A stretch of DNA of 36,895 bases from Pyrinomonadaceae bacterium (GTDB lineage: Bacteria > Acidobacteriota > Blastocatellia > Pyrinomonadales > Pyrinomonadaceae). Where the stretch lies: the NCBI GenBank assembly GCA_035630035.1, contig DASQLL010000055.1, forward strand, positions 1 to 36,895, read 5' to 3'. The stretch's first letter is position 1. Each line of letters starts with the position of its first letter. The notes beneath the pieces were generated by a model. The model ran no database searches, was not told the origin of the DNA, and was given only the letters and a program-made list of their open reading frames with translations. Positions 5,040 to 34,602 of this stretch are shown one piece after another. A program made the position numbers and the translations under genes.

Positions 5040-5046
5040 AGAATTT

Positions 5047-14736: not shown

Positions 14737-17117
14737 CACGCCCCCCGCAAGCGGAATCTCAGTCGCCTGCCGCCGAGCCACGGCACGCGCTCAAGCTCCG
14801 CCAGATAGCCTGCCGTCTCCAAGACCACGTCGAGCGGCGCGCGCTCCAACTCGACGGTCAGCGCGTCGCGTCCCGCGTACAGCCGCCCGCGCCTGCGTAG
14901 GAACTGCTCGACCAGATACGGCACGCCCGACGCGGAGAAGTTTCTGAGCCAGCGCGCCCATAATCTGAGCAGCGAACAGGTCGTGAGCGCGATTGACAGG
15001 TCGGTGCGAGCCGCCCCGAGCCGCCCGCCATCGAGCGCCGCCAGCGCCTCGCGCAGCGCCGCACGACCTGACTCGTGCAGGCTCGACAACTCTTCGCCCG
15101 CCGCGCCTGGCCCCACGCCGACGGCGGCCGCGTCTTCGACGGCGACACCCTCGCCGACGACGACGCGCGGGCGCACGCCGGACGCCGCCTCCCACGAGTC
15201 GAGCCACGCGGCCAGGATTCCCGAAGCCTCTTCGCGCTCGCCGACGACGCACCCCAGCGGCCAGAACAGCGCACCCTCATCCGCGGCGACGAGTGCCGCC
15301 TCGCCGCCTTCAAGCTCCACCTTGTAGACGTGCATCACGTCGGCGCGCAGCAAACGCTGCCCCGCCGCGACCTTCAGCAGCGCCCCCTGAAGTCGCTCGC
15401 CGCACGCCTCGTCCGAAGCCCACGCTTCGCGCAGCTCGTCGAGCGACAGCGGCCCGTCGAGCCCCGCGAGCAGGCAGAGCCCTTCGTCCAGAGACCCGAC
15501 CGCCGTCGCCGCCTCCGCGCCGAACAGACGTAGCCCGAGCGCGGCAATCAGCTTCGCGGTCGTCGTCAGACGCGCGGCCGGCTCGTGCCCTTCGCCCGTC
15601 ACGGCGGCGCGCACGCCCCCCGTCTCCGAGTCAAGTGAGTTGAGCCGCGCGTCGAAAATCGCGCGCAGAAGGAGCGACGCCCCCGCGCACGCACTCTCGA
15701 CGCCGACGCCTTCGTGCGCCCGAGTCTGCTTCCAGCCGTCGTCGAGTTTTTCGAGCAGCGCCACCGCGGGCTCGCCCAGTGCCGCGACGAAATGGATGGC
15801 GGCGGCCGCGCCCGCGTGCCTCTCCGCCGTACTTGCGCGTCCTTCTTCTGCGACGGCGTGCAGCGCGCCCTCGGCGTCACCCTGCCGGAGGCTGCGCGCT
15901 AGCGCCTCGGGGCGAGCCGCGTCGAGCAGCAACTGCCTCACCGCCAGCAGATGTTGAATGGTCGTTTTCGCCGCGGCGTCGTCGGCCCAACGCGGCTCGC
16001 GGCCGACGAGCGCCGCGTAGAGCCGCAGCGCGCCGGCGTAGAGATCATCGCCCGCGCCGCCCGTGCCCGGTCGCGCGCCTTCGCCGACGACCGCGTCGAG
16101 CGCCCTGAGCAGTTCGCGCTGGCGCGGAGTCGCCCCGAGGCGCGCGGGCAGGCGCGCCGCCTCCCGCGAGCCGCCGTGCAACTCAACCAGCGCGCCCTTC
16201 AGCCACCCGGCGTCGAGCCAGTCGTACTTTGCGAGCGCGCGCTCGAAGGTCTCAGGGAGGCCGACGGCCGTCTTGCGGCTGAGCAGCCCTCGCCTATCGA
16301 AGAAGAGCAGAACGTCGAAGAGTGCGACGGCCAGGGCGCGCGGGTCGCGCCAGTCGGGCGCGGGCGGCGAGGTTTGAAGATAGACTTCCAAAAGCTCCTC
16401 GCCCACACGATTGCGTCCCCACGCGCCGAAGTCTTCGACGAGCGCGAGGGCAAGCGCGTAGAGCGGGCGAACCGATTCGGCCCCGCCGCCGGGCGCTTCC
16501 ACGGCGTGCGTTCCGCCGTCGAACACTTCGTCGGTGGGTGCTTCGTCGTGCGGGGCGCCTTCCCAGAGTTCGCGCCGCGTGCTCGAATCGAGCGAGTCGA
16601 GCGCGGGGCCGAGCGCGCCTGCCTCGCCGAGTCGCGCGAGTATGTGGGCGAGGCGCCGGCGGTTGTCGAGCAGCACGCGGCGCAGCGTCGCCGGCGCCGT
16701 GTCGGCGCGCAGAGGTGCGAAGGCCGAGAAGTACCAGCGTCCCCAGGCGTCGCTGTTCAGCAGCGCCGCGACGAACTGCGCGACGTAGTCGGCCTGCGAG
16801 TCGAAGCGCACGAGGTTCGTGCCGTCTTCGGAGGTGAGGGCGCGCACGACCGCGCCCGCCAATTGCTCGCCCCAGCGGTTCGCGACGCGCGTGTCGGTCG
16901 TCGTCTCGCCGAGCGTCAGGCCGACGCGCGCGCGCACGCGCCGGAGGACGTAGACCGTCTCTTCGCCGCCGAGCGCGGCCTCCAATGAGTCGGAGAAGGT
17001 CGCCGCCAGTCGCTCGCGCTTGATGGCTTCGAGCCGCGCCGTCAACGCCCGCGCGCCTTCGCCCCGCGCGCCGAACACGCGGTAGCGGCTGTGTAGGTGA
17101 GCGACGCGACCGTCCAC
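14736..17117 (-). CDS. Putative eCIS tape-measure protein (Cis14 position), 793 aa Ala/Leu/Arg-rich
   Basis: GTG start at 17117 with GAGGGGAGG upstream. It sits between the fibre-position genes and the ATPase, as Afp14 does. The N-terminus (HLHSRYRVFGA...VYVLRRVRARVGL) and C-terminus (PLDVVLETAGYLAELERVPWLGGRRLRFRL) resemble my recollection of CIS tape-measure family ends. Not verified. Confidence 0.5.
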   Translation of the reverse strand: MDGRVAHLHSRYRVFGARGEGARALTARLEAIKRERLAATFSDSLEAALGGEETVYVLRRVRARVGLTLGETTTDTRVANRWGEQLAGAVVRALTSEDGTNLVRFDSQADYVAQFVAALLNSDAWGRWYFSAFAPLRADTAPATLRRVLLDNRRRLAHILARLGEAGALGPALDSLDSSTRRELWEGAPHDEAPTDEVFDGGTHAVEAPGGGAESVRPLYALALALVEDFGAWGRNRVGEELLEVYLQTSPPAPDWRDPRALAVALFDVLLFFDRRGLLSRKTAVGLPETFERALAKYDWLDAGWLKGALVELHGGSREAARLPARLGATPRQRELLRALDAVVGEGARPGTGGAGDDLYAGALRLYAALVGREPRWADDAAAKTTIQHLLAVRQLLLDAARPEALARSLRQGDAEGALHAVAEEGRASTAERHAGAAAAIHFVAALGEPAVALLEKLDDGWKQTRAHEGVGVESACAGASLLLRAIFDARLNSLDSETGGVRAAVTGEGHEPAARLTTTAKLIAALGLRLFGAEAATAVGSLDEGLCLLAGLDGPLSLDELREAWASDEACGERLQGALLKVAAGQRLLRADVMHVYKVELEGGEAALVAADEGALFWPLGCVVGEREEASGILAAWLDSWEAASGVRPRVVVGEGVAVEDAAAVGVGPGAAGEELSSLHESGRAALREALAALDGGRLGAARTDLSIALTTCSLLRLWARWLRNFSASGVPYLVEQFLRRRGRLYAGRDALTVELERAPLDVVLETAGYLAELERVPWLGGRRLRFRLRGA

Positions 17118-17153: not shown

Positions 17154-18563
17154 TTACGGCTCGACGATGAGCTTGAGTGCCTTGCTGAGTTCGTCGGCGA
17201 GCGCCGGTTGGCTCGCCCTGACGCGCTCGACGAAATGGTCGCGGAACGACGAATCTTCCGCGAGGCGGCGCGTTAAGGCTTCCATGCTGTCCGCGTCCGC
17301 GGCGGTGGCTGAACTGCTAAAGGCTATGGCCCGCCTGTCCGTGCCGCTGCCGCTGAGCGCCGCGAGCATCGCCCCGCCGGCGACGCCGCTCCCGATGGTG
17401 CCGGCTAAGTAGGCGCGCGCCGACGAGGACGCTCGCGCCGAGGCACGTTCCTGCGTTTCGATGAGCTGGCCGATGACGACGAGGTTGCCGTGGACAGTGA
17501 CGGTGCAGTCGTCCGTGATGGTGAGGCACGGGTGGAAATCTTCGGTCTCGTTGCCGGCCTCGTCCGGCCCCTTGAACCACGAGCCGATGACGACCCGGTT
17601 GCTCCCGGCGCCAGCGGCGGTGGCGGCGCGCGCCATCTCGATCCGAAGCTCGTGTGCGCCCTCGCCGTTGTCGAGGTGGTAGACGCTCCACGGCGGGAGG
17701 TCGGGGTCGCGCGCCGTCCCCGCCTGAAACTCGATGGCGCCGCCCGCCATCGTCAGGTTGCCGTAGAGCGTCGCGTCGCGCCGCACTTCGAGGTCGCCGC
17801 TCTTGTCAATGCTCAACAGCGGGCGCGGCGGCCGCTCGCCGGCCTCCTGAGCTTCGGGGATGAAGACGGCGAAGCGGCGCGAGTCGTCGGCAAGCTCCGC
17901 GCCGACCTGCACGCGCGCGCGCCCGGAAGGAGCGGCCACCTCCTCGCCGACGAGCCCGATATAAGGGCGGTCGTCCGACTTGATGGTGAAGGGCTGCTTC
18001 TGGTTCGAGCGGTCGTAGACGACCTGGCCGAGGAAGACGGGCCAGTCGTTGACGGGGTCGTCGGGCGGCGTGCGGACGGGCGAGAAATCGAGGTCGGGGC
18101 GGGGGACGCTCTCGGGCTGGCGGCGGACGAGGAAGTCCGGGTCGGGGCGTTCGAGCTGGACGCGCGCCGTCTCCTGCCAGCGGTAGAAGGAGGCGCCGCC
18201 GCGCGCCGAGTCCCCGCAGCCGGCGTAGCCCGCGGGCGGCTCGTCGCTGCCGCTGCGCTCGTAGACGAGCCAGACGTCAAGCTCGTCGCTCACCTTTTCC
18301 GAGAAGGTGTTCGACGAGAGCGGCTGCCGCTGCGGCAGAATCAGCTCGCGCCCGTAGCCGTCCACGGCCATACCCGGTTGGACGTAGAGGTTGCCGCCCT
18401 CTTCGGCGACCACCTCAAGCCCGGTGACGATGCCCCAGGTGTGGTGCGAGATGTTGTGGCGGCGGCGCATCGCGACGTGGTAGTCCTGCTCGTCGGCGAA
18501 GTCCGCGGGGCGTAGGTATTGGCGTTCGTAGTAGTGGACGCGTGTGACCTGTCTGTCGCTCAT
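17154..18563 (-). CDS. eCIS fibre-position protein, paralog 4 of 4 (shared N-terminal module; unknown function)
   Basis: 469 aa, ATG start. N-terminal HYYERQYLRPADFADEQDYHVAMRRRHNISHHTWGIVTGLEV...QPGMAVDGYGRELIL. Collinear with 18595-20364 over about 400 aa (RTPPDD, WPVFLGQV, SGRARVQVG, FHPCLTITDDCTVTVHGNL). Confidence 0.7.
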   Translation of the reverse strand: MSDRQVTRVHYYERQYLRPADFADEQDYHVAMRRRHNISHHTWGIVTGLEVVAEEGGNLYVQPGMAVDGYGRELILPQRQPLSSNTFSEKVSDELDVWLVYERSGSDEPPAGYAGCGDSARGGASFYRWQETARVQLERPDPDFLVRRQPESVPRPDLDFSPVRTPPDDPVNDWPVFLGQVVYDRSNQKQPFTIKSDDRPYIGLVGEEVAAPSGRARVQVGAELADDSRRFAVFIPEAQEAGERPPRPLLSIDKSGDLEVRRDATLYGNLTMAGGAIEFQAGTARDPDLPPWSVYHLDNGEGAHELRIEMARAATAAGAGSNRVVIGSWFKGPDEAGNETEDFHPCLTITDDCTVTVHGNLVVIGQLIETQERASARASSSARAYLAGTIGSGVAGGAMLAALSGSGTDRRAIAFSSSATAADADSMEALTRRLAEDSSFRDHFVERVRASQPALADELSKALKLIVEP

Positions 18564-18594
18564 CTCGTCGTGTCACCCCCTTCGTCTGGCCCGT

Positions 18595-20364
18595 CTAACC
18601 CTGCGGCACGATGACCCGGACGGTCGCCTCCGCCGTCGCCGTCAGCACGTTCGACATGGCTCCAAGGCCGACGACGGTGACGACGAGTTTGATGTCGCCG
18701 GCGACTGAGCCCGGTTCAAAGATAAAGAAGTCTGCGGGTTGGGAGAGGTCGGGTCTTGGCGGGAATCTCCTCGGCGTCGCGCCCGCGGCGAGGCTGAAGG
18801 GTGCGGCGGGATAAGTCCGCCGCGTGGTCGCGCCGTTGAAGGTCAGGCTCTCGTAGACCAGCAGGCCGGCGATCAGGTTCTCCCCGGCGTTGAGCACGTT
18901 GATGGCATAGACCAGCTTCTCATTCGTCACCATCGCCCGCACGTTGCCGTCCGGGGTCTCGAGCTCCGTCAGCGGTCGCGGGGGGTTGTCCCCGTCCTGC
19001 CTCTGAACCGTGAGTTCGAGCTGAAGCTCAACCGGCACGTCTGCCGGCGTACTGCTGACAATCCCGCCCACCGCGGCCGCTGACTTGACGAACTGGTTGA
19101 CCAACTCGGCGCCGAAGCGCGGGTCTGAAGGGTCGGCCTTGATGGGGGCTTCGATGACCCGGCCCCTGACTTCGAGGTTGCCCGCGACCGTGACGAGGCA
19201 GTCGGCCGTCAGCGAGAGGCAGGCGTGGAACTCGTCCTTCGCGTCGCACGAGCCGACCGTCAGCCTGTAGAGCGCGGGGTCGCCCTTGTCGCCGGGGTTG
19301 CCCATCTCGAAGCGGAGCTGTCGGATGCTCCGGGCGTCCTTCGTGACCGAGGTGCGATAAACCTGCCAGGGCGCGGCCGCCTTCGGCGTCGCGGCGAGCG
19401 GGCGGAAGTTGACGGCGCGCGCCGCCCCCTTAACCTCCTCACGCGCCGCTCCGCGTCGGCACTCGGGCGGGAGGTCGGGCGGGAGCGGCCCGCCCGCGTC
19501 TTTATTCTCGTGCAGGATGAGCTGGCCGCCGAGCGTCGTGTTGCCGCGCACGACCGTCTTCCCCTCGCGGTCGAGCGCGAGGCGTTCGACGAAGGCGCCC
19601 GCGTCGTCCGCGACGGAGACGGCGAAGCGGCGCGCGTCGCCCGCCGCCTCGCTCCCCACCTGCACGCGCGCGCGCCCCGACGCGGCCGTCAACATCTCGC
19701 CCCGCAGCCCCGCGTAGGGGCGCGTCGCGCGCGGGATTTCGTAGCGCACCGTCCCGCCGGCCGAGACACGCGCGACCCGGCCGAGGTAGACGGGCCACAC
19801 ACGCGCCGCGTCGTCGGGCGGCGTCCGGTGGGGACGGAAGCCGAGGTCGTCAGTGGGGACTTCGGCGGGCACGCGCGGGTCTACCACCTGCGCGGGATTG
19901 ACGAAGTCTGCGGGGCGAACGCGCGTCAGGCGCAGGCGCGACACCTCGCGCCTGCGGTCGGAGAAACCCGGCCCGCAGGCGCGGCGTCCGCGCTGCGTCG
20001 TCAACGCTCCCTCGTAGTCGTAGACGAGCCACACGTCGAGCATCTCGCTGTGCAGCCGGTCGAAGGCGTCGGGCGGGAGCGCGAGCTGTTCGTCCACGAA
20101 CAGCTCGCGCCCGTAGCCGTCAACGGCCACGCCCGCCTCGACCGAGAGCCCGCCCGCCTGCGTCAGCCTCAGCCCGAGCCCGCGGACGATGCCCCAGATG
20201 TGGTGCCCCGTGTTGTGGCGGCGGCGCATCGAGACGCGGTAGTCCTGCTCCGCGACGAGGTCTGCGGCGCGCAGCACCTGGCGCTCGCGGAAGCGGACGC
20301 GCGTGGCCCCGGCGACGGGCTCGGCCGCCTCTACCGGGCTAGCTTTTTGGCACTTTCTATCCAC
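18595..20364 (-). CDS. eCIS fibre-position protein, paralog 3 of 4 (shared N-terminal module; divergent beta-rich C-terminus)
   Basis: 589 aa. The only in-frame start nearby is GTG at 20364, which overlaps the upstream gene by 34 nt. RFRERQVLRAADLVAEQDYRVSMRRRHNTGHHIWGIVRGLGL...EAGVAVDGYGRELFV. The start position is uncertain. Confidence 0.65.
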   Translation of the reverse strand: MDRKCQKASPVEAAEPVAGATRVRFRERQVLRAADLVAEQDYRVSMRRRHNTGHHIWGIVRGLGLRLTQAGGLSVEAGVAVDGYGRELFVDEQLALPPDAFDRLHSEMLDVWLVYDYEGALTTQRGRRACGPGFSDRRREVSRLRLTRVRPADFVNPAQVVDPRVPAEVPTDDLGFRPHRTPPDDAARVWPVYLGRVARVSAGGTVRYEIPRATRPYAGLRGEMLTAASGRARVQVGSEAAGDARRFAVSVADDAGAFVERLALDREGKTVVRGNTTLGGQLILHENKDAGGPLPPDLPPECRRGAAREEVKGAARAVNFRPLAATPKAAAPWQVYRTSVTKDARSIRQLRFEMGNPGDKGDPALYRLTVGSCDAKDEFHACLSLTADCLVTVAGNLEVRGRVIEAPIKADPSDPRFGAELVNQFVKSAAAVGGIVSSTPADVPVELQLELTVQRQDGDNPPRPLTELETPDGNVRAMVTNEKLVYAINVLNAGENLIAGLLVYESLTFNGATTRRTYPAAPFSLAAGATPRRFPPRPDLSQPADFFIFEPGSVAGDIKLVVTVVGLGAMSNVLTATAEATVRVIVPQG

Positions 20365-22886
20365 TCTTTGACCTGTTCCTCTCCGACTCCGGTGATCTCT
20401 TTGGTGAGTTCTTTCAGGCGCTCGACCGGCGTCTCCGCAAGCTGCGCGAAGGTGCTTATGCCGGCCTCGCGCAGCTTCTGCGCCGTAATCGGGCCGATGC
20501 GCGGGATAACTGTGAAGTCGTCCTCACGTGAGGCGGCCCGTCGCGGTAGCGGGAGGAGCTGCGAGTTCGCGGGGACTGGCGGGGTCGCTCCCCGAGGCAC
20601 GAGCCACAACTCAAACCTATATTCATTCAGGGTTGGGTCCTCGAAGATGACGATTCTCACCACGATGCGTCCGGAATCAATGCCCCGCCTATTGACGAGA
20701 TAGTCCCTCGCACGGCTTGCACGCTGGTCGATGGTGCCTTTAGTGCCGTCGCCGTTACCGAAGTGGTAGACGATAACGTGGCCTTCGGCTGTCGGGTCGT
20801 TCTGCAACTCGATGGCGAAAATGTCGAGACGCGCATTCTCAGTGGCGAACCTTTCCTGTAACTCGTCAGAGAAAATATCCTCACTCCCAAGAGTCCCAAT
20901 AAAAGGGTCGGGGAAATCGTCAATCTTGCGCGCCTGCGGGGCGATGACGTTGGTGCTGAGCCTGCCCGTGGTGTTGCAGCGCGGGTCGTAGCCACTGACT
21001 TCGACCGTGGCCGTGATCTGGTGGCCGGGAGGTACCCCCGACGAGTCCACCCCGATGCTCGGCGTGCCCTGACCGCTGGCGATGGTGCCGCGGGACGCCG
21101 ACCAGTTATAGCCGACCGTCGTGACAGGTGTGGCGCCCGTCACCCTGACCGTGAATTGGACTATGTCTCCGACCGGGACGCTGTTTGGAGCGTCCATCGT
21201 GATTGTCGGGCACGCGGGCTCTTCGGGCGCGGCCTCGACGGTGGCCGCAATGCTCCGCGTGGTATCGCACGTCTGGTCGTAGCCGCCGACTCTAACCCTG
21301 ACCGTGACTGGCGTGTTGGGCGCAAGCCCGGCGGGGTCAAAGGTGATCGAATTGGTGCCCTGGCCGCTGATGGCTCCGGCCGAAACCTCCCAGTTGTAGG
21401 TCGGCGTTACGTTCGGGTCGCCGCCGGTCACGTCGGCCCAGAACGGGTTCGGCTGCCCGGCCCTGAGGGAAATCGAACCGGTCAAACGGATGTCCGGGCA
21501 CAGGGGCGGCGGCGTCGTGCCGGTGGCCGTGCAGAAGCCGACGACGCGCTGCCCGAGCGGCCCGTCCGTGAAGGTGTAGGCGATGCGCTCCTCGCCGCAC
21601 TTGACGAAGAGGTCGCAGCGCAGCGCCTTCAGGAGGTCGGCGGGCGTGGCGGGCGTCCTGAACTCTTCCCGCCTCACGCGCACGCCGAGGTCGGCGAGCA
21701 TCGTGCAGACCTCGTCCCAGCGGTGCCAGATGGCGCGGCCGACGTTGACGTAACCGAGCGGGGCGGGCCAGCAGTCGGGCTGAACGGGACGGCGGAACGG
21801 CGGGTAAGGGTCGATGGCCGTGATGCAGAAGCGCTCGACGCCGTTGCGCTCGCGCTTCTCAAGCCAGACGCGCGCGAGCGGCACGCCCACGTCCGTCTCG
21901 CATTCGAAGCAGGCGCAGTTGAGGTAGGCGGTGCGACAGTCGCGCACCATCTGGAAGAGCAGCTCGGTCTGCACGCGGGGGCTGGCGAGTTCCGTTTCGG
22001 TGAGCCCGCAAATCTCGTCCTGCAGGCCGCAGAAGTACCGCATCGGGTGGGCCGCGAGCCAGTCGAGCAGGTAGCGGCGCACCTCCGCGCCGGTGAGGTT
22101 CGGCTTAAAGTTGACGAGCACGTCGAGGCACTTCTCGTAACCCTCGTGCCAACGCTTGGCGCGCTCGCTGACCGGGTCGTCGTTGAGCGCGCCGAGCTTC
22201 CAAAAGAGTTCGTACGACTCGCGCGTGCGGCTGTACTCGCACGCGGCCACCTCACGGCAGGCGCTGCGGCCGAGCGCCGTCGCCGGCTCCGAGGGCTTCT
22301 CGGCGTAGCGTATGTAGATGTCTACTATCTTGACGTTCTCAATCGCGTCGGGCCGGTGGACTCCGCCGGAGGCCGCGTCGACCGCATGCGGGTTGGCCTT
22401 ACGGAAATCCTTCAGGGCGGTCTGCCGCGCCCCCGCGCCCGGCACGCCGGCGAGCCCGAGCGCGCCGTAGCCTGCGAGCGCGCCGTACTTCTCCTCGACG
22501 GCGCTGCGCAGGTCGGCACACGGGTCTTCCTCGTCGCGGCAGGCGGCCGAGAGGTCGAGCGTCGCCTCCGAGCAGACGATGATGTCGTCGCCGCAGCAGT
22601 TGACGGCGTAGCCCGGCGTGACGACAACGCTGTCGCACTTGCCCGGCGCGCAGCGCACGTCGAGCCCGCAGACGACGCCCCAGCCATCGCGGTAGCGCAC
22701 GAGCCCCGTCTTGTCGCGCGTCCAGTTGACGAGCGCCGTCAAGTCCTGGTCGGTGAGGAGTTGCCCGCAGAAGAAGCGCGGCTGCACGAGGCAGTCGAGG
22801 CCGCAGCACGTCTCCTCGCCCCCGCCGCAGTCGCAAGGGTGCGCCCCGTTCTTCTTACTCGGCACGGTCAGCGTCGTCGTTGCCAT
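20331..22886 (-). CDS. eCIS fibre-position protein, paralog 2 of 4: Cys-rich N-terminal module, two Ig-like repeats, alpha/beta domain, C-terminal helix-hairpin-helix (851 aa)
   Basis: Start re-set to the ATG at 22886 (AGGAGGA upstream); the ORF-track extension overlaps the previous gene. HPCDCGGGEETCCGLDCLVQPRFFCGQLLTDQDL...DGWGVVCGLDV. Two ~88-aa repeats (YNWEVSAGAISGQGTNSITFD / YNWSASRGTIASGQGTPSIGVD). The C-terminal IPRIGPITAQKLREAGISTFAQLAETPVERL is HhH-like. Confidence 0.7.
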   Translation of the reverse strand: MATTTLTVPSKKNGAHPCDCGGGEETCCGLDCLVQPRFFCGQLLTDQDLTALVNWTRDKTGLVRYRDGWGVVCGLDVRCAPGKCDSVVVTPGYAVNCCGDDIIVCSEATLDLSAACRDEEDPCADLRSAVEEKYGALAGYGALGLAGVPGAGARQTALKDFRKANPHAVDAASGGVHRPDAIENVKIVDIYIRYAEKPSEPATALGRSACREVAACEYSRTRESYELFWKLGALNDDPVSERAKRWHEGYEKCLDVLVNFKPNLTGAEVRRYLLDWLAAHPMRYFCGLQDEICGLTETELASPRVQTELLFQMVRDCRTAYLNCACFECETDVGVPLARVWLEKRERNGVERFCITAIDPYPPFRRPVQPDCWPAPLGYVNVGRAIWHRWDEVCTMLADLGVRVRREEFRTPATPADLLKALRCDLFVKCGEERIAYTFTDGPLGQRVVGFCTATGTTPPPLCPDIRLTGSISLRAGQPNPFWADVTGGDPNVTPTYNWEVSAGAISGQGTNSITFDPAGLAPNTPVTVRVRVGGYDQTCDTTRSIAATVEAAPEEPACPTITMDAPNSVPVGDIVQFTVRVTGATPVTTVGYNWSASRGTIASGQGTPSIGVDSSGVPPGHQITATVEVSGYDPRCNTTGRLSTNVIAPQARKIDDFPDPFIGTLGSEDIFSDELQERFATENARLDIFAIELQNDPTAEGHVIVYHFGNGDGTKGTIDQRASRARDYLVNRRGIDSGRIVVRIVIFEDPTLNEYRFELWLVPRGATPPVPANSQLLPLPRRAASREDDFTVIPRIGPITAQKLREAGISTFAQLAETPVERLKELTKEITGVGEEQVKEWIESAKKLAR

Positions 22887-24222
22887 CTCCCTCGTCCTCC
22901 TTCCGATAGACCACGTGGAACCAGCTCTCGAACGTGCCGCCGGGGACGCCGTTGCCCGTCGGCAACAGGCCGCGCAGGAAGTTGCCGTCCACGGGGTTGC
23001 CGTGGCAGTCGAGAATGAAATCGCACTTGAGCCGGACGTACACGGTGTTGCCGACGATGGTCTCGCCGCGGCGGTCGGCGCGCAGCTCGCCGCGGCGGTC
23101 GCCGCGGTAGGCCGGTCGGATGTAGTCGGGATCGATAGTGAAGACGGCGCGGCAGTCGTCTTCAAGCGCGGGCGGGCTGTCGGCGTCGTAGGGCAGGAAC
23201 TCCACGTCGCGCTGGATGCCGCCGTACTCAACGACGAAGGTCAGTGGGCTGACGCCGGTCGCGTCGCCGTCGGCCTCGCGCAGCTTGCGGTCGAAGAGGA
23301 CTTCGAGCCGGCCGCCCATCCGTTCGTTCAACTCTTCGAGCGTCACCTCGCCGCCGTGCGGCCAGTTGACGTGGACGACGTGTGTGAGCAGGTCGGGCGG
23401 CGTCGGCAGGTAGCGACGCCCGCGGCGTCGGATGCGGAAGCCCGCCGAAGGGTCGTCCGTGTTGACCTCGATGTAGGCGAGCGGCACATACTCGCCGCAG
23501 GGGCAGACGGGCTCGATGCACGTCCCGCCGGGGCCGGGCAGTTCGTCGCCGCAGTCGTCGCGGCAGGGCGCTTCGGGGTCGCCGCCGGGGGTGCGCCAGC
23601 AATCCCCCTGCACGTCTTCGAGCTTGACGACGACGATTTCGGCGCGCTCGCGCACGCGGTTGGCCTCGACGCGCGCGGGGTCGCACGCGCCCTCGCTGTA
23701 GAGCGCAGGCACGCGCTCTATCTCGTCCTCCGTGTAGCGGAGCGCGAGCAGGAAAGGCTCGGCCAATACTTCGTCGCCGCCCGTGCCGCCTTCGCCCCCC
23801 GATGCTTCGCCGTGGCCCTCTGTGCCCTCGCCGTACGAGCGCGACTGTTGGCCGCCCTCGTCCTCTTCCGCCGCGCGGGGCGGCAGCGGCAGCTCGAAGG
23901 CCGTCGCCTGCTCGATGATCAGCTCGCGGCCGCAGCAGTCGAGCGCGACGCCCGGGTGCACGACGACCCAGCGGCGCGCGCACTCCGAGTCGGGGTTGCG
24001 CCGGTAGTCCGGGTGGTGCGTGACCTTGAGGCCACAGACGATGCCCCAGCCGTGGAGCAGGTGGTTGTGCAGGCGGTGGCGGCTCAGGAAGTAGGTCTGC
24101 TCGTCCTGAAAATCGCGCGCGGCCATGTACTTGCCTGTAAAGTAGCGGTTGCGCTCGGCGGCGATGTAGCCGCACTCGCCCTGCCCGCAACGGCAATCGT
24201 CCTCGTGCCCTTTTGAACGCAT
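22855..24222 (-). CDS. eCIS fibre-position protein, paralog 1 of 4: Cys-rich (455 aa)
   Basis: Start re-set to the ATG at 24222 (GGAGGA upstream, 17 nt after the previous stop). DDCRCGQGECG...RYFTGKYMAARDFQDEQTYFLSRHRLHNHLLHGWGIVCGLKV...HPGVALDCCGRELII. Many further Cys pairs. Confidence 0.7.
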   Translation of the reverse strand: MRSKGHEDDCRCGQGECGYIAAERNRYFTGKYMAARDFQDEQTYFLSRHRLHNHLLHGWGIVCGLKVTHHPDYRRNPDSECARRWVVVHPGVALDCCGRELIIEQATAFELPLPPRAAEEDEGGQQSRSYGEGTEGHGEASGGEGGTGGDEVLAEPFLLALRYTEDEIERVPALYSEGACDPARVEANRVRERAEIVVVKLEDVQGDCWRTPGGDPEAPCRDDCGDELPGPGGTCIEPVCPCGEYVPLAYIEVNTDDPSAGFRIRRRGRRYLPTPPDLLTHVVHVNWPHGGEVTLEELNERMGGRLEVLFDRKLREADGDATGVSPLTFVVEYGGIQRDVEFLPYDADSPPALEDDCRAVFTIDPDYIRPAYRGDRRGELRADRRGETIVGNTVYVRLKCDFILDCHGNPVDGNFLRGLLPTGNGVPGGTFESWFHVVYRKEDEGDGNDDADRAE

Positions 24223-24239: not shown

Positions 24240-26630
24240 TCACGTCAAGACTGTCCCAAGGCCGGCGCGCGTCCCGCGCCCGACCCGTAGCGTGGGCCGG
24301 TCTGCGGCCTGCGCGGCCAGGATCATGTCGTAGCCCAAGCGGCCCGCGGGCGGCCGGCTCGGCGGCGTGTCGGCGTCGTGGCGACACGCGAGCCTCGCCC
24401 GCGGGTGCGCCCCGACGACCGTGTCTATCCCGACCGTTGACTGGAGCCCGACGCGGAAGCGCGGCTCGACGAGGCAAAGGTCGAAACTGGTGTGCGCCGG
24501 CTTCTCGGCGTTGAGGGCGCGGCGCACCATCTCCTCGTCCCTTGCCGTGCGCACCCATGCCGAAGGGACGAAGACGCGGAAGCGGTGCGCGAATTCGTGG
24601 AAGAGGTCGCGCTCCGGGTCGCCCGTCGAGACCAGCCGCGTCTCGCCCTCGCGCGCGAACTCGCCGAGCCGCAAGCGGCCGACCGCGCTCTGACTCCAGA
24701 GCGGCGCGCCGACTGAGAGCGCCGCCCCGTCGCCGCAGCCGAGCGTCATCCGCTGGCGCTCGCGGAAGCCCTCGACGACCTGCGGGTACTCGCCCTGCTG
24801 CTCGTGGCTCAGCCCCGTGATGTTCTCAAGGTAGACGCGTAGGAACCTGCGCAGCCCCTCGGCCGTCCCACGCCGCGCCGCCGAACTCGGCTCGACCTCC
24901 GACAGGCACTCGTCGTTCGCGCCCGAAACCTTCCACCTGCCGAAGTAGATTCCGGCGGCGGCTTCGAGCAGCCGCCGCTTCTGCTCAGATTTCCAGGTGC
25001 CTTCAAGCGGCAGCGCGAACCAACTCGCCAGCCATTCGAGCGCCTTCCCGCCCGGCACCGCCTTCGCATTGAAGAGCGCCAACGAGTCCTCGTCGGCCGG
25101 CACCGCCTTCGGATCGAAGAGCGCCGCCGAGTCATCAATGCGCCGCTCCAACTCGTCCCACTCGGTCTGGAAGATCGAGAGGAAGCGTTCGAGGAAGTGC
25201 CGCGTCTCCTCGTCGGACGAGTAGACGGCCGGCAGGTACGCGAGGTAAGACTGGCGCGGGTAATGGATGCGCGCCGACTTTACCGACGGCGTCCCGTAGC
25301 CGTCGCCGGTCAGCCGAATCTTCAGCCAGAGGAACTGCCCTTCGTGACTTTGCACGAGGAACTCGTGAGGGACGCCTGTCGGCTCGTCCGCGCACGGCTC
25401 TCGCACAGCTCCCCCTTTCGGCTTCGCGCGCGGTGGGCGCGCGAGCCTTCCGGCCGCCTCGTGGCTCTTGCTCCACAGACTTTCGGGACGCGCGCGCACC
25501 TCGTCGTCGGTCAGCTTCTGCGCGTCCGTGTAGGTGTAGACTTCGAGGCGCGTCCCCGCGGGCAGCGCGCCGACCCCAAGCTCGACGCGGTGCCACTGGC
25601 AGCGGTAAATCTCGCTGTCGAGCGCCTCGCTCAACCACTCGCCCTTGGCCGCGTAGAGCCTCGGCCCCGCGTGGCGCTCCGCGGGGAGGCGCACGCGCCG
25701 ACCCTCCCGGTCGAAGACGAGCCCGCCGGGCGGCTTCGACGCGCAGGCTCCGAGCGGCGACTCGGCCGCCGGCGGGTCGCAGGGCGCGCGCCGGTCGCAC
25801 GCGCGCATGAGCCCTTCGGGCAGGCAGAAGCGCCAGGGCTCCTTCTCGCCGTCGCCCGATAGGCGCAGCGGCGGCGGCTCGAAGCTCTCGCGCACGTCGC
25901 CCGCATCCGTCAACGTCTCCTTGAAACGCCCGCCCGCGTCATAGACCCTGAGCCTCCGCTTCCCGGCGTCGAGCAGATAGACGAGCCCTTCCGTGTCCAC
26001 CGCTACGCGCGACCAGAGCCCGCGTGCGTTGCGCTCGTCAATCAGAAGCCGGAGCGTGTCCGTCCCCGGCCGGTGCGTGTAGACGCGCGCGCGGCGGCGG
26101 TCGAGGATGTGCGCAAGACCGCCGCGCGCGGCCACGTCAACGGGCTCCCACGCGTCCGGGTCGTCGGCGCGCGTGCGTCGGCCGCGCGCGTCCAGAGGCC
26201 CGAAGACGTGGCGCACGGCCAGCGTCCCCAATGCGAAGACCTGCACGCGGCGGTTGCCGCGGTCGGCGACGTAGAGGCTGTGGCCGGCGACGGCGATGGC
26301 CGAGGCGTCGCGGAACTGCCGCACGTCCGAGCCCTGCTCGGCGCCGACGGCCGCGAGCGCGACGAACTCACGCCACTCGGGGTCGAAGCGACGCACGCCC
26401 GCCAGCTCGCGCCCGAGGATGTAGAACGTGCCCTCGTCGTCCAACGCCACCCGCGCCGGCAGGACGAGGCCGCCGAGGCTGTCGTCCTGGCTCGTCAGCG
26501 CGAGCGGCCCCGCCGGGTCGGCGTCGAGGCGCAGCCCCCCCCGCGCGCTCACGCTCACGCCGTCGGACGAGGCCGTGCGCCAGCCGGTGCGCCCGTCGAG
26601 CAGGAATGATTTGGGGCCTTTTGGTCGCAT
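24240..26630 (-). CDS. Baseplate protein, P2 gpI-like phage-tail domain (Cis12 position) with an N-terminal NHL-type repeat region (796 aa)
   Basis: The C-terminal half carries the phage tail protein signature YLPAVYSSDEETRHFLERFLSIFQTEWDELERRIDD. The N-terminal ~250 aa carry repeats such as SLYVADRGNRRVQVF and LVYLLDAGKRRLRVYD. No obvious SD at the ATG at 26630. Confidence 0.8.
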   Translation of the reverse strand: MRPKGPKSFLLDGRTGWRTASSDGVSVSARGGLRLDADPAGPLALTSQDDSLGGLVLPARVALDDEGTFYILGRELAGVRRFDPEWREFVALAAVGAEQGSDVRQFRDASAIAVAGHSLYVADRGNRRVQVFALGTLAVRHVFGPLDARGRRTRADDPDAWEPVDVAARGGLAHILDRRRARVYTHRPGTDTLRLLIDERNARGLWSRVAVDTEGLVYLLDAGKRRLRVYDAGGRFKETLTDAGDVRESFEPPPLRLSGDGEKEPWRFCLPEGLMRACDRRAPCDPPAAESPLGACASKPPGGLVFDREGRRVRLPAERHAGPRLYAAKGEWLSEALDSEIYRCQWHRVELGVGALPAGTRLEVYTYTDAQKLTDDEVRARPESLWSKSHEAAGRLARPPRAKPKGGAVREPCADEPTGVPHEFLVQSHEGQFLWLKIRLTGDGYGTPSVKSARIHYPRQSYLAYLPAVYSSDEETRHFLERFLSIFQTEWDELERRIDDSAALFDPKAVPADEDSLALFNAKAVPGGKALEWLASWFALPLEGTWKSEQKRRLLEAAAGIYFGRWKVSGANDECLSEVEPSSAARRGTAEGLRRFLRVYLENITGLSHEQQGEYPQVVEGFRERQRMTLGCGDGAALSVGAPLWSQSAVGRLRLGEFAREGETRLVSTGDPERDLFHEFAHRFRVFVPSAWVRTARDEEMVRRALNAEKPAHTSFDLCLVEPRFRVGLQSTVGIDTVVGAHPRARLACRHDADTPPSRPPAGRLGYDMILAAQAADRPTLRVGRGTRAGLGTVLT

Positions 26631-26647: not shown

Positions 26648-28672
26648 TTACAAGTTGACCGCGGGCACGACGACGATCTCGTGTTCGGCGACGCCGTAGA
26701 CGAGGCCGTCGGGGCCGACCTTCACCGCCTTGTCTCTCTCGTGCGGACGGCCGTCAACCGTGACGGCGAGGTAAGAGACCGAGACGACATCCTTCACGTC
26801 GAGGATGACGTTGAAGAGGTTCGTCGGGAAGAACTCGCGCCCGAAGTCCCACCCGGGCTTCGCGCCGCCCTGCGCGTCGGGACACTTGGAGGCGGGCTTG
26901 GAGTCGTCGTCGGACTGCTTGCGCCCGAGCGGGTCGAGGTACTCGTTGATGGCCGCGGCCACGTCGAGCGCGACCGTGTCGAAGGCCGCGTAGGGCTGCG
27001 CCGCGACCTGCGCCTCGACCTTGACGGCCTGATACTCCGGCCCTTTGACGTAAATCTCGGCCGTGAGCGGGCGGCGCTTGTCGAGGTACTGGCAGACGCG
27101 CCGCAGCAGGTCGGCCGAAGGCTTCGGCGCGGGGTCTTCGATGTCGGCCTCGGGGACGACGACGACGGTCACGGCGCCGGGGACTTCGACGCCGGGGTGA
27201 TCGGGGTGCATGAGCGAGATGGCCGTCGCCTTGCAGACCTCGCCCGCCTCGGCCGCGAGTGCCGCGAAGTCGTCGCCCGTGATGGCGCGGTCGCGGCTGC
27301 GCAGGAGCCGGGGCGCACGCTCCCTCAGCGTCTCGACCTTCTGCTCGTCGCGCCCGCCCGTCGCGGGACGCTCGTTCGTCACCTTCTCGACGCCGACGAG
27401 CGACGAGACGATTGACGTGACGAGCCCCGAGGGGACGTTACCCGCCCCTCCGCCGCCCGCAAGGTATTGTCGCGCGATGATGTCGACGCCCGCGGGTGGG
27501 ATGAGGCCGCGTGCCCCGTCGCCGAAGCGTATCTCGCCGGTCGTCGCGCTCAGCGTGTAGTGCCGGCTCTCGGGGCCGGAGGCGAGGAAGTCGTCCACGC
27601 GTTGCCAAGTCTGCGACTCGACGTTGTCCTGCTCGACGACGAGTTCGAGCGAGTCGGGCTGCACGGGCCTCTGCCGCAGTGTGAAGAACTGTTCGGGGGT
27701 GCCATCACTCTTGCCGGGGAAGCCGTTGCTCTTGCCGACGAACTCGTCGCGCACGGTCGAGAGGTTTTCGGCCTCGACCGTGTTGGGGCGTATGAAGTCC
27801 ACGACCGGGGGCTGACCCGCGGGGTAAGTGCCGGAGGCGAGGCGCACACGCAGCCAGTAGCGCGGCTCGGCCACCTTCTCTACAACGGTCGGCTCAACCT
27901 CCTTCGGCCCTTCGACCAAGATGTAGCCCTCGCGCGTGAAGGCGACGCTCTCGTCCTTGTAGACACTCAACCGCCGCCAGCGCGGTGCTTTGTCAGAGGG
28001 GAGGTACTCCCAGACGAGCGTGACGGGCGGGGCGGGGGCCTGCGCGACCTCTCGGCAACTGACGGGCCTGCCGGCCTGCGACGCCGGAGGTAGAAAGACG
28101 CGGAAGCGCATCTCCTGCGGGAAGGGGCGCGACGGCGGCGGGCGGGGCGGAGTGAAGCCGAGGTAGAGCGCGCTGCCTGACTGCGGGAGCCAGCCGAAGG
28201 GCGGGAAGGTCGTGCCGGGGGTGTTGTTCGCTTCGGTCAGCACGGTGAAGGCGGCGCCGTCGAAGACCTGCACGTCGGTGAGCGGAACTCTGATCAGGTC
28301 GAGCCCTTCACGCGTCTCGAAGACAACGGAGCTGCCTTCGGGCGACTGCGCCTGAATCTGCGCGCGGCGCGGGACGGACTCGACCGCCGCGCCGGCCACA
28401 GCCGTGAACGTCAGGTGCGCGGTGGCCGGCTGCGCGGGCTGTAGCTCCATGCCGAGCAGTTGCAGGAACTTGATGTAGTTGCGATCCGGCACGCGGTTCA
28501 TCTGGTAGAGCATCATCTCGGTGAGCCACGCGAAGAGCTGGACGAGCGTGATGCCTGGGTCGCTCTCGTTGAAGTCCGTCCACTGGGGCGTGTAGCGCGG
28601 GATGCGCAGCTCCGCCTCGCGCAGGAGGTCTTCAAACTTCCGTGTGTCGAGTTGTGGCGCTTCGAGTGGCAC
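26648..28672 (-). CDS. Baseplate J-like protein (gp6/gpJ; Cis11 position), 674 aa
   Basis: GTG start with GAGGAGG upstream. The N-terminus APQLDTRKFEDLLREAELRIPRYTPQWTDFNESDPGITLVQLFAWLTEMMLYQMNRVPDRNY is the characteristic putative-baseplate-assembly-protein opening. Confidence 0.88.
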   Translation of the reverse strand: MPLEAPQLDTRKFEDLLREAELRIPRYTPQWTDFNESDPGITLVQLFAWLTEMMLYQMNRVPDRNYIKFLQLLGMELQPAQPATAHLTFTAVAGAAVESVPRRAQIQAQSPEGSSVVFETREGLDLIRVPLTDVQVFDGAAFTVLTEANNTPGTTFPPFGWLPQSGSALYLGFTPPRPPPSRPFPQEMRFRVFLPPASQAGRPVSCREVAQAPAPPVTLVWEYLPSDKAPRWRRLSVYKDESVAFTREGYILVEGPKEVEPTVVEKVAEPRYWLRVRLASGTYPAGQPPVVDFIRPNTVEAENLSTVRDEFVGKSNGFPGKSDGTPEQFFTLRQRPVQPDSLELVVEQDNVESQTWQRVDDFLASGPESRHYTLSATTGEIRFGDGARGLIPPAGVDIIARQYLAGGGGAGNVPSGLVTSIVSSLVGVEKVTNERPATGGRDEQKVETLRERAPRLLRSRDRAITGDDFAALAAEAGEVCKATAISLMHPDHPGVEVPGAVTVVVVPEADIEDPAPKPSADLLRRVCQYLDKRRPLTAEIYVKGPEYQAVKVEAQVAAQPYAAFDTVALDVAAAINEYLDPLGRKQSDDDSKPASKCPDAQGGAKPGWDFGREFFPTNLFNVILDVKDVVSVSYLAVTVDGRPHERDKAVKVGPDGLVYGVAEHEIVVVPAVNL

Positions 28673-28685: not shown

Positions 28686-29084
28686 TCAGCCGGCTCCCTC
28701 GTTGATGAAGAAGGGGTAGACGAGATTGTAGAAGGCGTTGTTGGAGCGGACGCGGTAATCGACCCGGATGAGCATGTAGTTGCGCGCCTCCGGTTCGGTC
28801 TCGACGCGCACGTCCGTCACGTCGATCCGCGGCTCCCAGCGGACGAGCGCCTCGCGCACGCGCGTCTGCACGAGCCCGCGCAACGCCGCCGTGTTCGGCT
28901 CGAAGACGAGGTCGTGGATGCCGCAGCCGAAGTCGGGGCGCATCTGTCGTTCGCCGGGCGCGGTGCTCATGATGAGCCAGATGCTCTGGCGTATCTTCTC
29001 CTCGCCGCCCGAGAACGAGAGTCGGCCGCCCGGCCCGGGCCTGACGGGGAAGCTCCAACCCCGCCCAATGAAATCTCGCTCCAT
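28686..29084 (-). CDS. GPW/gp25-family baseplate wedge protein (Cis9 position)
   Basis: 132 aa. FIGRGWSFPV...EEKIRQSIWLIMSTAPGERQMRPDFGCGIHDLVFEP is the classic gp25 motif. GAGAGGAG SD. Confidence 0.9.
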   Translation of the reverse strand: MERDFIGRGWSFPVRPGPGGRLSFSGGEEKIRQSIWLIMSTAPGERQMRPDFGCGIHDLVFEPNTAALRGLVQTRVREALVRWEPRIDVTDVRVETEPEARNYMLIRVDYRVRSNNAFYNLVYPFFINEGAG

Positions 29085-29121: not shown

Positions 29122-29508
29122 TCAGCCGATCATCACCGTGCCCGTCGCGACGACGGTTCCGACGGGGAGGTCTACCGGGTCGTTGCAGGTCAGCGCGGTG
29201 TCGCCGTTGCGCGCCGCCGCCTTGTTGTTGATAAAGACGGTGGCGCTGCCGGTGCTGATCTGCGCCCTGTTCTTGGGCGGGTTGACGAACGAGCCGCCCT
29301 GCGGGATGTGCGGCGGTGTGTTCGTCGCCGTGCTGTTGAGCGTCGCCGCCGGCCGCGACTCAATATTCACGTCGCTGCTCAGGGAGCCGTCGATGATGCC
29401 GCTGAACGGGTGCGGGACGGGGATGGGCGAAGAAGGCCCGGGCGGCTGAATCAGGTGTGTGTCAGTCGCCGTCACGCGGTCGCCCTGCTTGGCTGCGGGT
29501 TGCCCCAT
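29122..29508 (-). CDS. PAAR-like spike-tip protein (Cis10 position)
   Basis: 128 aa. GDRVTATDTHL...TVFINNKAAARNGDTALTCNDP fits PAAR-type repeats. GAGGAGG SD. It lies directly downstream of the spike gene. Confidence 0.8.
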   Translation of the reverse strand: MGQPAAKQGDRVTATDTHLIQPPGPSSPIPVPHPFSGIIDGSLSSDVNIESRPAATLNSTATNTPPHIPQGGSFVNPPKNRAQISTGSATVFINNKAAARNGDTALTCNDPVDLPVGTVVATGTVMIG

Positions 29509-29521: not shown

Positions 29522-30106
29522 TCAGTTGATGTTGACGGTCGCGCCCTTGATCGTCATCGTCCCCGACGCCTGGAGCGTCATGTTGCCGCTGGCCTTGATC
29601 TCGACGGTCGTCGCGTCCACCTTGACCGTCCCGCTCCCGGCCTTCACCTCCACGTCGCCAGAGTCGCAGGTGACTTGAATCTTCTGGTTGGCGCTGTCGA
29701 GGACGACCTTGCGCTTGCCGTCGCTCGCGATGATCTCGATCTTCTCCTTGCCCTGCGTGTCGTCGAAGATGAGCAGGTGCGCGCTGCGCGACTTGATGAC
29801 GCGGATATCGTTCTTCGCGGACTGCACGCCCTCGTCGGGCGGCGTGTCGGTCTGGCTCCACAGCGAGCCGAGGACGTAGGGGCGGCGCACGTCGCCCAGC
29901 TCGAAGGCGACCAGCACCTCGTCGCCGACCTCGGGGCGGAAGAACTGCCCGCGATCTTTGCCCGCCATCGGCGTGACGAGCCGCGCCCAGTCGCTCTCCT
30001 GGTCGGCGAGCGTGGGGTACTTCACCTTGACGCGCCCGAGCTTCTCCGGGTCATTGAGGTCGGTCACGAGGCCGATGATGATGCCGTTGACCTGCTGTCC
30101 GCCCAT
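29522..30106 (-). CDS. gpV/gp5-like baseplate spike protein (OB-fold, VgrG-like; Cis8 position)
   Basis: 194 aa. GLVTDLNDPEKLGRVKVKYPTLADQESDWARLVTPMAGKDRGQFFRPEVGDEVLVAFELGDVRRPYVLGSLW is the Phage_base_V / VgrG OB-fold signature, followed by a beta-helical tail (VTCDSGDVEVKAGSGTVKVDATTVEIKASG). Confidence 0.9.
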   Translation of the reverse strand: MGGQQVNGIIIGLVTDLNDPEKLGRVKVKYPTLADQESDWARLVTPMAGKDRGQFFRPEVGDEVLVAFELGDVRRPYVLGSLWSQTDTPPDEGVQSAKNDIRVIKSRSAHLLIFDDTQGKEKIEIIASDGKRKVVLDSANQKIQVTCDSGDVEVKAGSGTVKVDATTVEIKASGNMTLQASGTMTIKGATVNIN

Positions 30107-30122: not shown

Positions 30123-31262
30123 TTAAAGTTCCTCGCGGCGACACTCGAACTGCGTGGTGTAGCCGGCGTCGGTGATGGAGTGTGTCGTGCCCGTCAGGAA
30201 GTAGCGTCCGCTGAAGCGGTCGCCCATGCCGTCGATCATGACGACGCCCCCGGCGCGCAGGTCGGGCAGGCCGACGACCGTGCCGCGCCCCTTAAGCATC
30301 TCCTTGGCAATCTGTTCGAGCGTCTCGACGGCGAGCTTCTTGGCCTCGTTGAGGCTGTTCACGGGGCGGTCGGCGATGATCTCCTCACGGTCGCCGAACG
30401 ACTGCTCGACGGCCCCCTGCCGCCCCTTCGACCCGACGCCCTTCGTCCGCAGCTCCTTGCGCGTGGCCGTGTACTTAATCCGCTCCTTCTTCTTGTTGTC
30501 CCAGCCGAAGACCGTCACCTTGCCGACCTGCATGGCCGTCGAAAGTTCGGGTTGGAACTCGACGAGCGATTTGCCGAAGGAGAGCTGGTAGGTGACGCGC
30601 TTGACGCCGTCCGACTTGCCGAAGTAGAGCTTGCTCTCGCCCGCCGTGTCGTTCTCCGAAGACTCCTTGACGAAGATGTCGTAGCCGACGCGGCGCGCGC
30701 GCTCCATCAGGAAGATGATGTCGTACTTGTTGTCCTGGAGGACGTAGTCGTAGCGCTCCTCCTTCTCGAGCGGGTTGGTCTCGACCGTGACGCCGAGCTT
30801 CTCCTTGAGCCGCTTACCGACCTCCTGAGCGATGCTGCTGTCGGTCTGCCTGACGTAGGTGTGCGACTCCTGCTTCGTGCGCATGCGGTGGATCAGGTTG
30901 AGCCCGCTGATGGCGAGCGTCGGCTGCCCCGTCGCCGGGAAGTTCGGGCGCAGCGACGTGATCTCGCCCTTAATCATCAGCCGGAGCTTGTCCTTGCCGA
31001 AGTAGCCCATCCAGAGTTCGATCTCCTTGCCGGGGTCGAAGATGGTGTCGTCGATGTACTTGAAGGAGCGCTTCTCGGCGTCCCAGTTGTTGATGGTGAT
31101 CTCGAACGAGTCCACCTCCTGCAAGCTGTCTTTGTAGCTGACCTGGACGATGTCGCGCACGACGTCCTTGTCGAGCAGGCGGCCGCGCAGCTTCACCTCG
31201 AAGGCGGGAACGTAGAACTCCTGCCCCTGATAGATCGGGATGGCTGTCGTGTCGGTGCTCAT
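30123..31262 (-). CDS. Phage late control gene D-like hub protein (gp27-like), 379 aa
   Basis: Start re-set to the ATG at 31262, which overlaps the LysM gene stop as ATGA. The overall layout and the C-terminal SGRYFLTGTTHSITDAGYTTQFECRRE resemble gpD-family ends. Confidence 0.8.
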   Translation of the reverse strand: MSTDTTAIPIYQGQEFYVPAFEVKLRGRLLDKDVVRDIVQVSYKDSLQEVDSFEITINNWDAEKRSFKYIDDTIFDPGKEIELWMGYFGKDKLRLMIKGEITSLRPNFPATGQPTLAISGLNLIHRMRTKQESHTYVRQTDSSIAQEVGKRLKEKLGVTVETNPLEKEERYDYVLQDNKYDIIFLMERARRVGYDIFVKESSENDTAGESKLYFGKSDGVKRVTYQLSFGKSLVEFQPELSTAMQVGKVTVFGWDNKKKERIKYTATRKELRTKGVGSKGRQGAVEQSFGDREEIIADRPVNSLNEAKKLAVETLEQIAKEMLKGRGTVVGLPDLRAGGVVMIDGMGDRFSGRYFLTGTTHSITDAGYTTQFECRREEL

Positions 31263-34546: not shown

Positions 34547-34602
34547 GAAAGCGTAGCTCCTTGCGCCCCGCCGACACGCGGGCAGGGGCGCGCTGCGGGG
34601 CT

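Follow-up and report, generated by a model that had tools for sequence, protein, structure and literature searches.

The DNA examined here, 36,895 nucleotides of a contig from a Pyrinomonadaceae bacterium (DASQLL010000055.1, positions 1 to 36,895; this whole stretch is hereafter called the window), carries on its minus strand the locus of a contractile injection system (CIS) in which four consecutive genes, designated P1 to P4 in the order of transcription, lie between the gene of the wedge protein Cis12 and that of a tape-measure-like protein. A Shine-Dalgarno-like sequence precedes each of the four; the overlap is 32 nt between P1 and P2 and 34 nt between P2 and P3. Because the gene downstream of P4 is tape-measure-like, P1–P4 fill the "position 13" slot, that is the place between gene 12 and gene 14 held by Afp13/Pvc13 in the classical systems. 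The interpretation developed below is that P1–P4 make up, with good probability, the set of fibre or outer-baseplate proteins in a CIS endowed with a Tail_P2_I-type (TssG-like) Cis12, each protein bearing at its N-terminus a shoulder of the kind found in TssK and in phage receptor-binding proteins (RBPs), recently named eBAP3; the ~85-residue module with which all four proteins begin would correspond to the first helix and the ensuing β-strands of this shoulder domain.

An earlier note on this DNA had claimed that the four proteins open with the same pattern of about 90 residues, and this is borne out. The peptides that it quoted are found in P1–P4 and align across about 85 residues, and BLASTP of the whole proteins yields matches restricted to the N-termini for P1–P2 (E 2e-10, 32% over 108 aa), P1–P3 (E 5e-9), P1–P4 (E 2e-12) and P2–P4 (E 2e-4), the pair P2–P3 giving no direct match in these pairwise comparisons. 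P3 and P4 are, as the same note had seen, collinear paralogs with different C-termini (E 6e-75, 39% identity over about 400 aa). In P1 the module displays the motifs RDFxDEQxY...HNxLLHGWGIVCGL...PGVALDCCGRE, a helix followed by β-strands; in the AlphaFold2 models the DFxDEQxY...RRHN stretch forms a long N-terminal helix (aa 35–52 in P1 and 19–42 in P4) which, in profile searches, aligns with its N-terminal counterpart in Alg19 and Cis19. Furthermore, the NCBIfam profile NF053767 (CIS13_fam) matches all four N-termini (E 8e-25, 3e-9, 2.5e-5 and 5e-10 for P1 to P4) and, this profile being curated independently, the shared module is not a product of chance. A chance or compositional similarity, for which nothing speaks beyond the high G+C content of the genome (~70%), has a negligible probability and is in fact already refuted by the significance of both the pairwise and the independent profile matches, by the occurrence of the module in 11,887 proteins at E ≤ 1e-3 (6,249 at E ≤ 1e-10) of a library of 1.84 billion cluster representatives and by its retention in 80 of 80 syntenic loci. 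Among the best 150 library matches listed, the module lies near the N-terminus in nearly all, in proteins whose length runs from some 100 aa to more than 1200 aa. A homologue search started from an alignment of the module over 92 aa brought up nothing but short fragments, of little value beyond hints of taxon.

As to the identity of the module, Pfam contains no match for it in P1–P4, and NF053767 recognises it with 87.9, 36.6, 23.7 and 39.1 bits (P1 to P4) against a cut-off of 370 bits, which is reached by 0 of 13 scanned proteins; the match covers positions ~3–140 of the 392 of the profile (5–89 in the case of P1), and the same N-terminal ~90–140 positions also match relatives of P1–P4. Two module profiles, one built from the N-termini of P1–P4 and the other, of wider scope, from 40 module sequences, were searched against the PDB, and both match two solved CIS proteins: All3314 (Cis19), which forms the "crown" trimer in Anabaena, whose CIS is thylakoid-anchored (PMC8894136; chain 7b5h_AA, residues 13–83, E 1.8e-6), and Alg19, the AlgoCIS tail fibre seen on its baseplate wedge in 9WT0 (bioRxiv 10.1101/2025.10.08.681156; chain 9wt0_a, residues 12–83, E 2.9e-5). 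These two proteins are reached by profiles only, since single-sequence phmmer searches of the PDB with P1, P2, P3 and P4 returned no CIS protein, neither Cis19 nor Alg19 included. The predicted folds point in the same direction. The best PDB match of the P4 model (49-sequence alignment; predicted local distance difference test score, pLDDT, 72) is 7b5h Cis19 (E 7e-4, Foldseek probability 0.99, ~215 columns), TssK structures follow with probabilities of 0.99–1.0 (5y0e, 6n38, 5mwn and 5m30) and phage tail-fibre/RBP models are matched in BFVD. The P1 model (pLDDT 79) likewise finds 7b5h Cis19 as its best PDB match (probability 0.95), with TssK being weaker (0.57), whereas its C-terminal part matches immunoglobulin (Ig)-like sandwiches. 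On the strength of the sequence-profile matches, the fold match can be placed at the N-terminus, and the same profile evidence makes the module a homologue of the shoulder with which Cis19 and Alg19 begin.

Three other assignments were considered. The Anabaena protein Cis13 (All3316) was not adopted as an equivalent of the module, its PDB chain having been matched neither by P1 nor by the module profiles. DUF6519 was ruled out, with no Pfam match at E ≤ 1 in P1–P4 nor at E ≤ 0.1 in nine relatives, and for the Afp13/Pvc13 fibre type neither the short helical anchor nor the adenovirus-like β-spiral found a match in Pfam or the PDB.

The cryo-EM structure of Alg19 gives an idea of how a shoulder of this type operates: the protein is a homotrimer whose N-terminal shoulder is folded like lactococcal phage RBPs and like the T6SS (type VI secretion system) protein TssK, and three helices at its centre keep hold of the Alg12 C-terminal loop, just as TssK does with TssG (10.1101/2025.10.08.681156). 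Five N-terminal "eCIS baseplate anchor" (eBAP) domains of extracellular CIS (eCIS) were defined by Nachmias, Wang, Feng, Jiang & Levy (Nat Commun 2026, PMC12923769; hereafter "the catalogue"). Of these, eBAP3 (~200 aa, 1420 genes) is shoulder-like and resembles both the tCIS crown and TssK, eBAP4 is the crown gene's own N-terminal stretch of 200 aa and eBAP5 is DUF6519; the loci of eBAP3 and eBAP5 possess Tail_P2_I adaptors resembling TssG, and up to four eBAP3 fibres attach via Tail_P2_I loops, being modelled by AlphaFold as homotrimers on separate loops (PMC12923769). Supplementary Data 10 of the catalogue contains PVC13-based chimeras only (PMC12923769). Judging from fold, genetic context and a shared species, Saccharopolyspora spinosa, the module is very likely eBAP3.

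The assignment of P1–P4 to a fibre or outer-baseplate set is directly supported by the homology of the module to Cis19/Alg19, the similarity of fold, the synteny and the pattern of conservation. By homology with Alg19, Cis19 and TssK, each of the four proteins would trimerise through its shoulder domain, generating a socket of three N-terminal helices that would clamp a loop of Cis12; several different trimers could thus hang on each of the six wedges, with the distal tips of P2–P4 contacting the surface of target cells and P1 acting as a fixed structural member.

The distribution of the module was followed by scanning one genome per GTDB species, which yielded 196 relatives of P4, from which 79 loci were fetched; the module genes of each locus were counted with the module hidden Markov model (HMM). 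Within a set of 80 loci, four consecutive module genes are present in 43 and three in 29, fewer being encountered only at contig ends, and the order gp25–Cis11–Cis12–(three or four module genes)–tape-measure-like gene–ATPase is kept in 80 of 80, across about ten phyla. Each of the four positions has its own sequence signature and constitutes its own orthogroup across phyla. The hosts belong to Acidobacteriota (the closest being a member of the Pyrinomonadaceae, at 58% identity), Chloroflexota and Actinomycetota (Actinoplanes, Kutzneria, Amycolatopsis, Saccharopolyspora spinosa, Kibdelosporangium and Nocardioides), and further to Cyanobacteria (Nostoc), Myxococcota, Proteobacteria (Lysobacter, Massilia), Bacteroidota, Verrucomicrobiota, Trueperaceae and Nitrospinota. 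In the S. spinosa locus (L045), which is syntenic with the window, four module genes stand in tandem; the same species, with four consecutive genes (IMG 2547161183-86), and S. phatthalungensis appear in the published eBAP3 table (PMC12923769). More distant, three-gene relatives carry other distal domains on the same anchor, namely an H-type lectin domain and a lactonase-like β-propeller in a Nostoc metagenome-assembled genome (MAG; L060, 9932–11314 and 5397–8216), and collagen triple-helix repeats in a Verrucomicrobia MAG (L080, 5576–8086).

What lies beyond the module was compared by segment-wise BLASTP of P1–P4 and of the wedge proteins against 38 four-gene loci. The anchor modules are found in 38 of 38 loci with a median identity of 54–60%, and they are therefore better conserved than the wedge proteins Cis11 (52%) and Cis12 (44%) of the same loci. 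The middle parts of P2–P4 are retained in 37–38 loci at 33–34%, whereas the tips are matched far more rarely, that of P2 (two PKD/Ig domains plus HhH) in 8 of 38 (40%), that of P3 in 5 (29%) and that of P4 in a single locus (33%). In P1, on the other hand, the C-terminal part is found in all 38 loci (43%), which means that this protein has no exchangeable tip. A fibre architecture is thus supported for three (P2–P4) of the four proteins: their exchangeable tips most likely bind target-cell surfaces, whereas P1 is more likely a fixed structural member than an exchangeable receptor binder. Of the proposal, made in the earlier note, of a shared baseplate-docking module carrying four different distal domains, the docking module is supported by the homology to the Alg19 shoulder and by anchors that are conserved while the tips of P2–P4 vary; the different distal parts hold for P2–P4 and fail for P1, which is kept over its whole length.

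The note was also right in describing P1 and P2 as Cys-rich (17 and 33 Cys, compared to 6 in P3 and 3 in P4) and in finding no classical fibre features, Pfam detecting neither collagen nor adenovirus-shaft features in P1–P4. The conservation of P1 extends throughout aa 151–455 (22855–23772) and includes about 17–19 Cys with CxC and CC pairs, the median of conserved Cys across loci being 19 for P1 and 26–30 for P2; P1 is possibly metal-binding. In P2, Pfam identifies PKD_6 and HHH_5, and aa 477–651 resemble the Ig domains of T4 Hoc. The end of the same protein (aa 792–848, 20331–20510) matches HHH_5 at E 2e-9 and, weakly, DUF4332 and Cdd1, an odd tip for a surface-binding fibre.

These data bear on the alternative that P1–P4 are structural or anchoring parts of the baseplate of an intracellular or membrane-attached CIS, comparable to TssK or to the Anabaena Cis13, instead of target-binding fibres. 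The shoulder fold is indeed common to TssK, the Anabaena Cis13 is a baseplate-bound trimer tethering its CIS to the membrane, P1 is conserved from end to end and relatives occur in Actinomycetota, whose studied CIS act, in the quoted view, intracellularly. Nevertheless, this alternative appears unlikely, for the tips of P2–P4 are replaced among orthologous loci in the manner of receptor-binding domains, lectin, collagen and Ig/PKD domains are borne by the same anchor and the locus contains eCIS_core (DUF4157) genes, typical of extracellular CIS. Moreover, P1–P4 lack a plausible transmembrane segment, the most hydrophobic 19-mer reaching 1.71 on the Kyte-Doolittle scale and lying in a β-rich C-terminus, so that a Cis13-like membrane anchor is likewise unlikely.

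The presumed docking partner of P1–P4, by analogy with the Alg12–Alg19 pair and with the published AlphaFold-multimer models of eBAP3 and Tail_P2_I, is Cis12, which matches TIGR02242 above the cut-off (61 bits) and Tail_P2_I weakly. Its N-terminal ~400 aa, with an NHL repeat at aa 106–132, lie outside the CIS12/Tail_P2_I core and may form a β-propeller extension of the baseplate. An alignment of 63 loci delimits at the opposite end of Cis12 a conserved tail of ~75 aa with candidate docking loops, in which three short, similar elements can be recognised (FRVGxQSTVGxDTxxG, RLGYDxxL and RVGxxTxL). Of 35 four-gene loci, 34 have an insertion of ~17 aa in this tail (ACRHDADTPPSRPP; ACRH..PPSRPP), which 23 of 28 three-gene loci lack; this correlation with paralog number is confounded by phylogeny, the three-gene loci being the more distant group. 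The insertion may represent an extra docking loop and would fit a scheme with one docking element per paralog.

The stoichiometry could also be conceived differently, with the paralogs co-assembling as heterotrimers (e.g., P1–P2–P4 in three-gene systems, with P3 as an alternative third chain) and one or two pseudo-threefold complexes occupying each wedge. Three or four distinct paralogs always occur together, in fixed order and each as its own orthogroup, a three-gene locus has precisely a single gene for every type, P3 and P4 arose from one type by recent duplication and the gene overlaps are consistent with translational coupling and equal dosage. However, all solved relatives (TssK, Alg19, Cis19 and Cis13) are homotrimers, the published AlphaFold models treat the eBAP3 fibres as homotrimers on separate loops (PMC12923769) and the number of elements in the Cis12 tail tracks that of the paralogs, a relation better accommodated by one socket per protein; mixed trimers are thus quite improbable, and a set of homotrimeric fibres remains the preferred arrangement. 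A further reading, in which the Cis12 tail would offer a row of sockets, a short docking element for every paralog, with the ~17-aa insertion as the socket gained along with the fourth gene, P1 as an invariant, Cys-rich (possibly metal-binding) structural trimer and P2–P4 as the only exchangeable receptor binders of a fixed, ordered outer baseplate layer, must be considered tentative and rather doubtful. If this were true, a particle would display up to 24 trimers and three specificities, a stoichiometry unseen in solved contractile injection systems.

The coordinates of the features of the locus are collected in Table 1. The profile NF033848 of the VgrG-related proteins is spread across two neighbouring open reading frames (ORFs), positions 5–346 falling in the first and 371–540 in the second, an arrangement that recalls P2-type tails, where the gpD-like and the gpV-like protein have a gene each. 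The 3′ ends of the two eCIS_core genes have a low G+C content (0.53 at 9001–10000 and 0.56 at 5001–6000, as opposed to ~0.70 elsewhere), which hints at toxin cassettes of recent acquisition. At its downstream edge, the locus has an IS3-type transposase with an integrase core (rve) and a TPR protein. A Logan contig from run SRR6958552 also carries the window's own genes.

Table 1. Features of the CIS locus in the window, in order of transcription
Feature	Position	Strand	Remarks
Sheath gene	35055–36647	minus	first in transcription order
Tube gene	34603–35037	minus	
Second sheath gene	32639–34702	minus	
Second tube gene	32206–32646	minus	
LysM-tube protein	31259–31984	minus	
VgrG-related protein	30123–31379 and 29522–30106	minus	two ORFs
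PAAR	29122–29508	minus	
gp25	28686–29084	minus	
Cis11/Baseplate_J wedge protein	26648–28672	minus	
Cis12-type wedge protein	24240–26630	minus	Tail_P2_I/TIGR02242, TssG-like position; N-terminal NHL repeat
Conserved C-terminal tail of Cis12	24243–24467	minus	~75 aa; candidate docking loops
P1	22855–24222	minus	455 aa; N-terminal shoulder/anchor, Cys-rich region, C-terminal Ig-like β-sandwich; no variable tip
Shared module in P1	23878–24162	minus	about aa 21–115
P2	20331–22886	minus	851 aa; anchor, Cys-rich middle, two PKD/Ig-like domains, C-terminal HhH_5; variable tip
Shared module in P2	22533–22790	minus	about aa 33–118
P3	18595–20364	minus	589 aa; anchor, P4-collinear middle, own β-rich tip (aa ~406–589)
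Shared module in P3	20059–20310	minus	about aa 19–102
P4	17154–18563	minus	469 aa; shoulder domain, β-rich middle, helical C-terminal tip (aa ~371–469)
Shared module in P4	18300–18554	minus	about aa 4–88
Conserved protein downstream of P4	14736–17117	minus	793 aa; weak CIS tape-measure (Cis14, CIS_TMP) match
Cis15-type AAA+ ATPase	12307–14781	minus	
Two large eCIS_core (DUF4157) proteins	9281–12769 and 5047–8934		after the ATPase
TPR protein	3834–4622		downstream edge
IS3-type transposase (rve)	2537–3409	minus	downstream edge

Several points weigh against regarding P1–P4 as eBAP3-type fibres of a Tail_P2_I baseplate. All four proteins stay below the CIS13_fam cut-off, Pfam and NCBIfam scans of P1–P4 contain no TssK family match and the equation with eBAP3 stands on fold, context and a shared species instead of a direct HMM match. 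The Foldseek E-values are modest (1e-3 to 1e-2) and the template-modelling scores low, because the N-terminal ~200 residues alone align. P1 lacks a variable tip, and this reading gives no account of the Cys-rich stretches in P1 and P2. In addition, we know of no system for which the structure of an eBAP3 multi-fibre baseplate has been solved, and the present lineage is known from its genes alone.

What, then, is new in this locus? The module, which the earlier note could not assign, is assignable and not new: it matches a characterised baseplate/fibre family (NF053767, Cis19, Alg19 and the TssK fold), which is, as regards novelty, the outcome that the note itself had named as a refutation, and the multi-fibre arrangement was already published as eBAP3 in January 2026 (PMC12923769). 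The existence of four separate orthogroups, the restriction of swappable tips to P2–P4 and the Cis12 insertion tracking the fourth paralog may go beyond that work. A widespread CIS of uncultured, Acidobacteriota-like lineages (about 70% G+C) is seen to possess the TssK-like anchor system in its full, four-fibre form. The sharp border that separates, in P2–P4, the conserved anchor and middle from the exchangeable tip offers natural graft points for programmable injection systems. Finally, these loci would be well suited to solving a multi-fibre Tail_P2_I baseplate for the first time, from which it could be learned how one TssG-like protein holds several different trimers.

In comparison with known systems, P1–P4 share with Afp13/Pvc13 (eBAP1) the place in the operon between genes 12 and 14 and presumably the role; unlike these fibres, which consist of a helical anchor of ~50 aa and a β-spiral shaft, P1–P4 revealed no such similarity in the Pfam scan. 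With the CIS13 family of NF053767 the anchor alone is shared (24–88 bits compared to 370), the remaining ~250 profile positions being unmatched. TssK seated on the TssG loops (PDB 6N38, 5Y0E and 5MWN) resembles the present proteins in the shoulder fold of the P4 model, in a gene located beside the TssG equivalent and in the expectation of more than one trimer per wedge; P1–P4 differ from it by having neither a family match at the sequence level nor a TssK head domain, and their locus differs from T6SS by the presence of a tape measure, PAAR and eCIS_core and by distal Ig, helical or β-rich tips.

As for Alg19/Cis19 (eBAP4), their first ~70 residues are homologous to the module at the profile level, Cis19 is the best PDB fold match of both the P4 and the P1 model, and they are trimeric baseplate appendages, with Alg19 docking on the C-terminal loop of its Cis12 homologue. 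Unlike P1–P4, which are four shorter paralogs (455–851 aa) with unrelated distal parts, they are encoded by single genes of ~1450 aa with a neck and Ig-rich shafts, and they belong, according to the catalogue, to loci with Afp12-type wedges instead of Tail_P2_I-type ones (PMC12923769).

A further known counterpart is the eBAP3 type. Multi-fibre loci make up 23.4% of the catalogue, with three fibre genes in 173, four in 19 and five in 4 (PMC12923769), so that four-fibre loci are rare there (19/2585, 0.74%), whereas they account for 43 of the 80 loci examined here and are thus much more common in genome-resolved metagenomes, and common in uncultured soil lineages, than the catalogue suggests; either some paralogs are missed by the latter or few Acidobacteriota and Chloroflexota MAGs are sampled in it. 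Another difference is that the catalogue treats all these proteins as rapidly evolving fibres, whereas those described here form separate orthogroups, one of which, P1, has no variable tip. The two have in common an N-terminal, shoulder-like and TssK-like anchor of ~200 aa, a gene located directly downstream of Tail_P2_I in an eCIS locus, up to four consecutive fibre genes and overlapping taxa (Saccharopolyspora, Kutzneria and Nocardioides).

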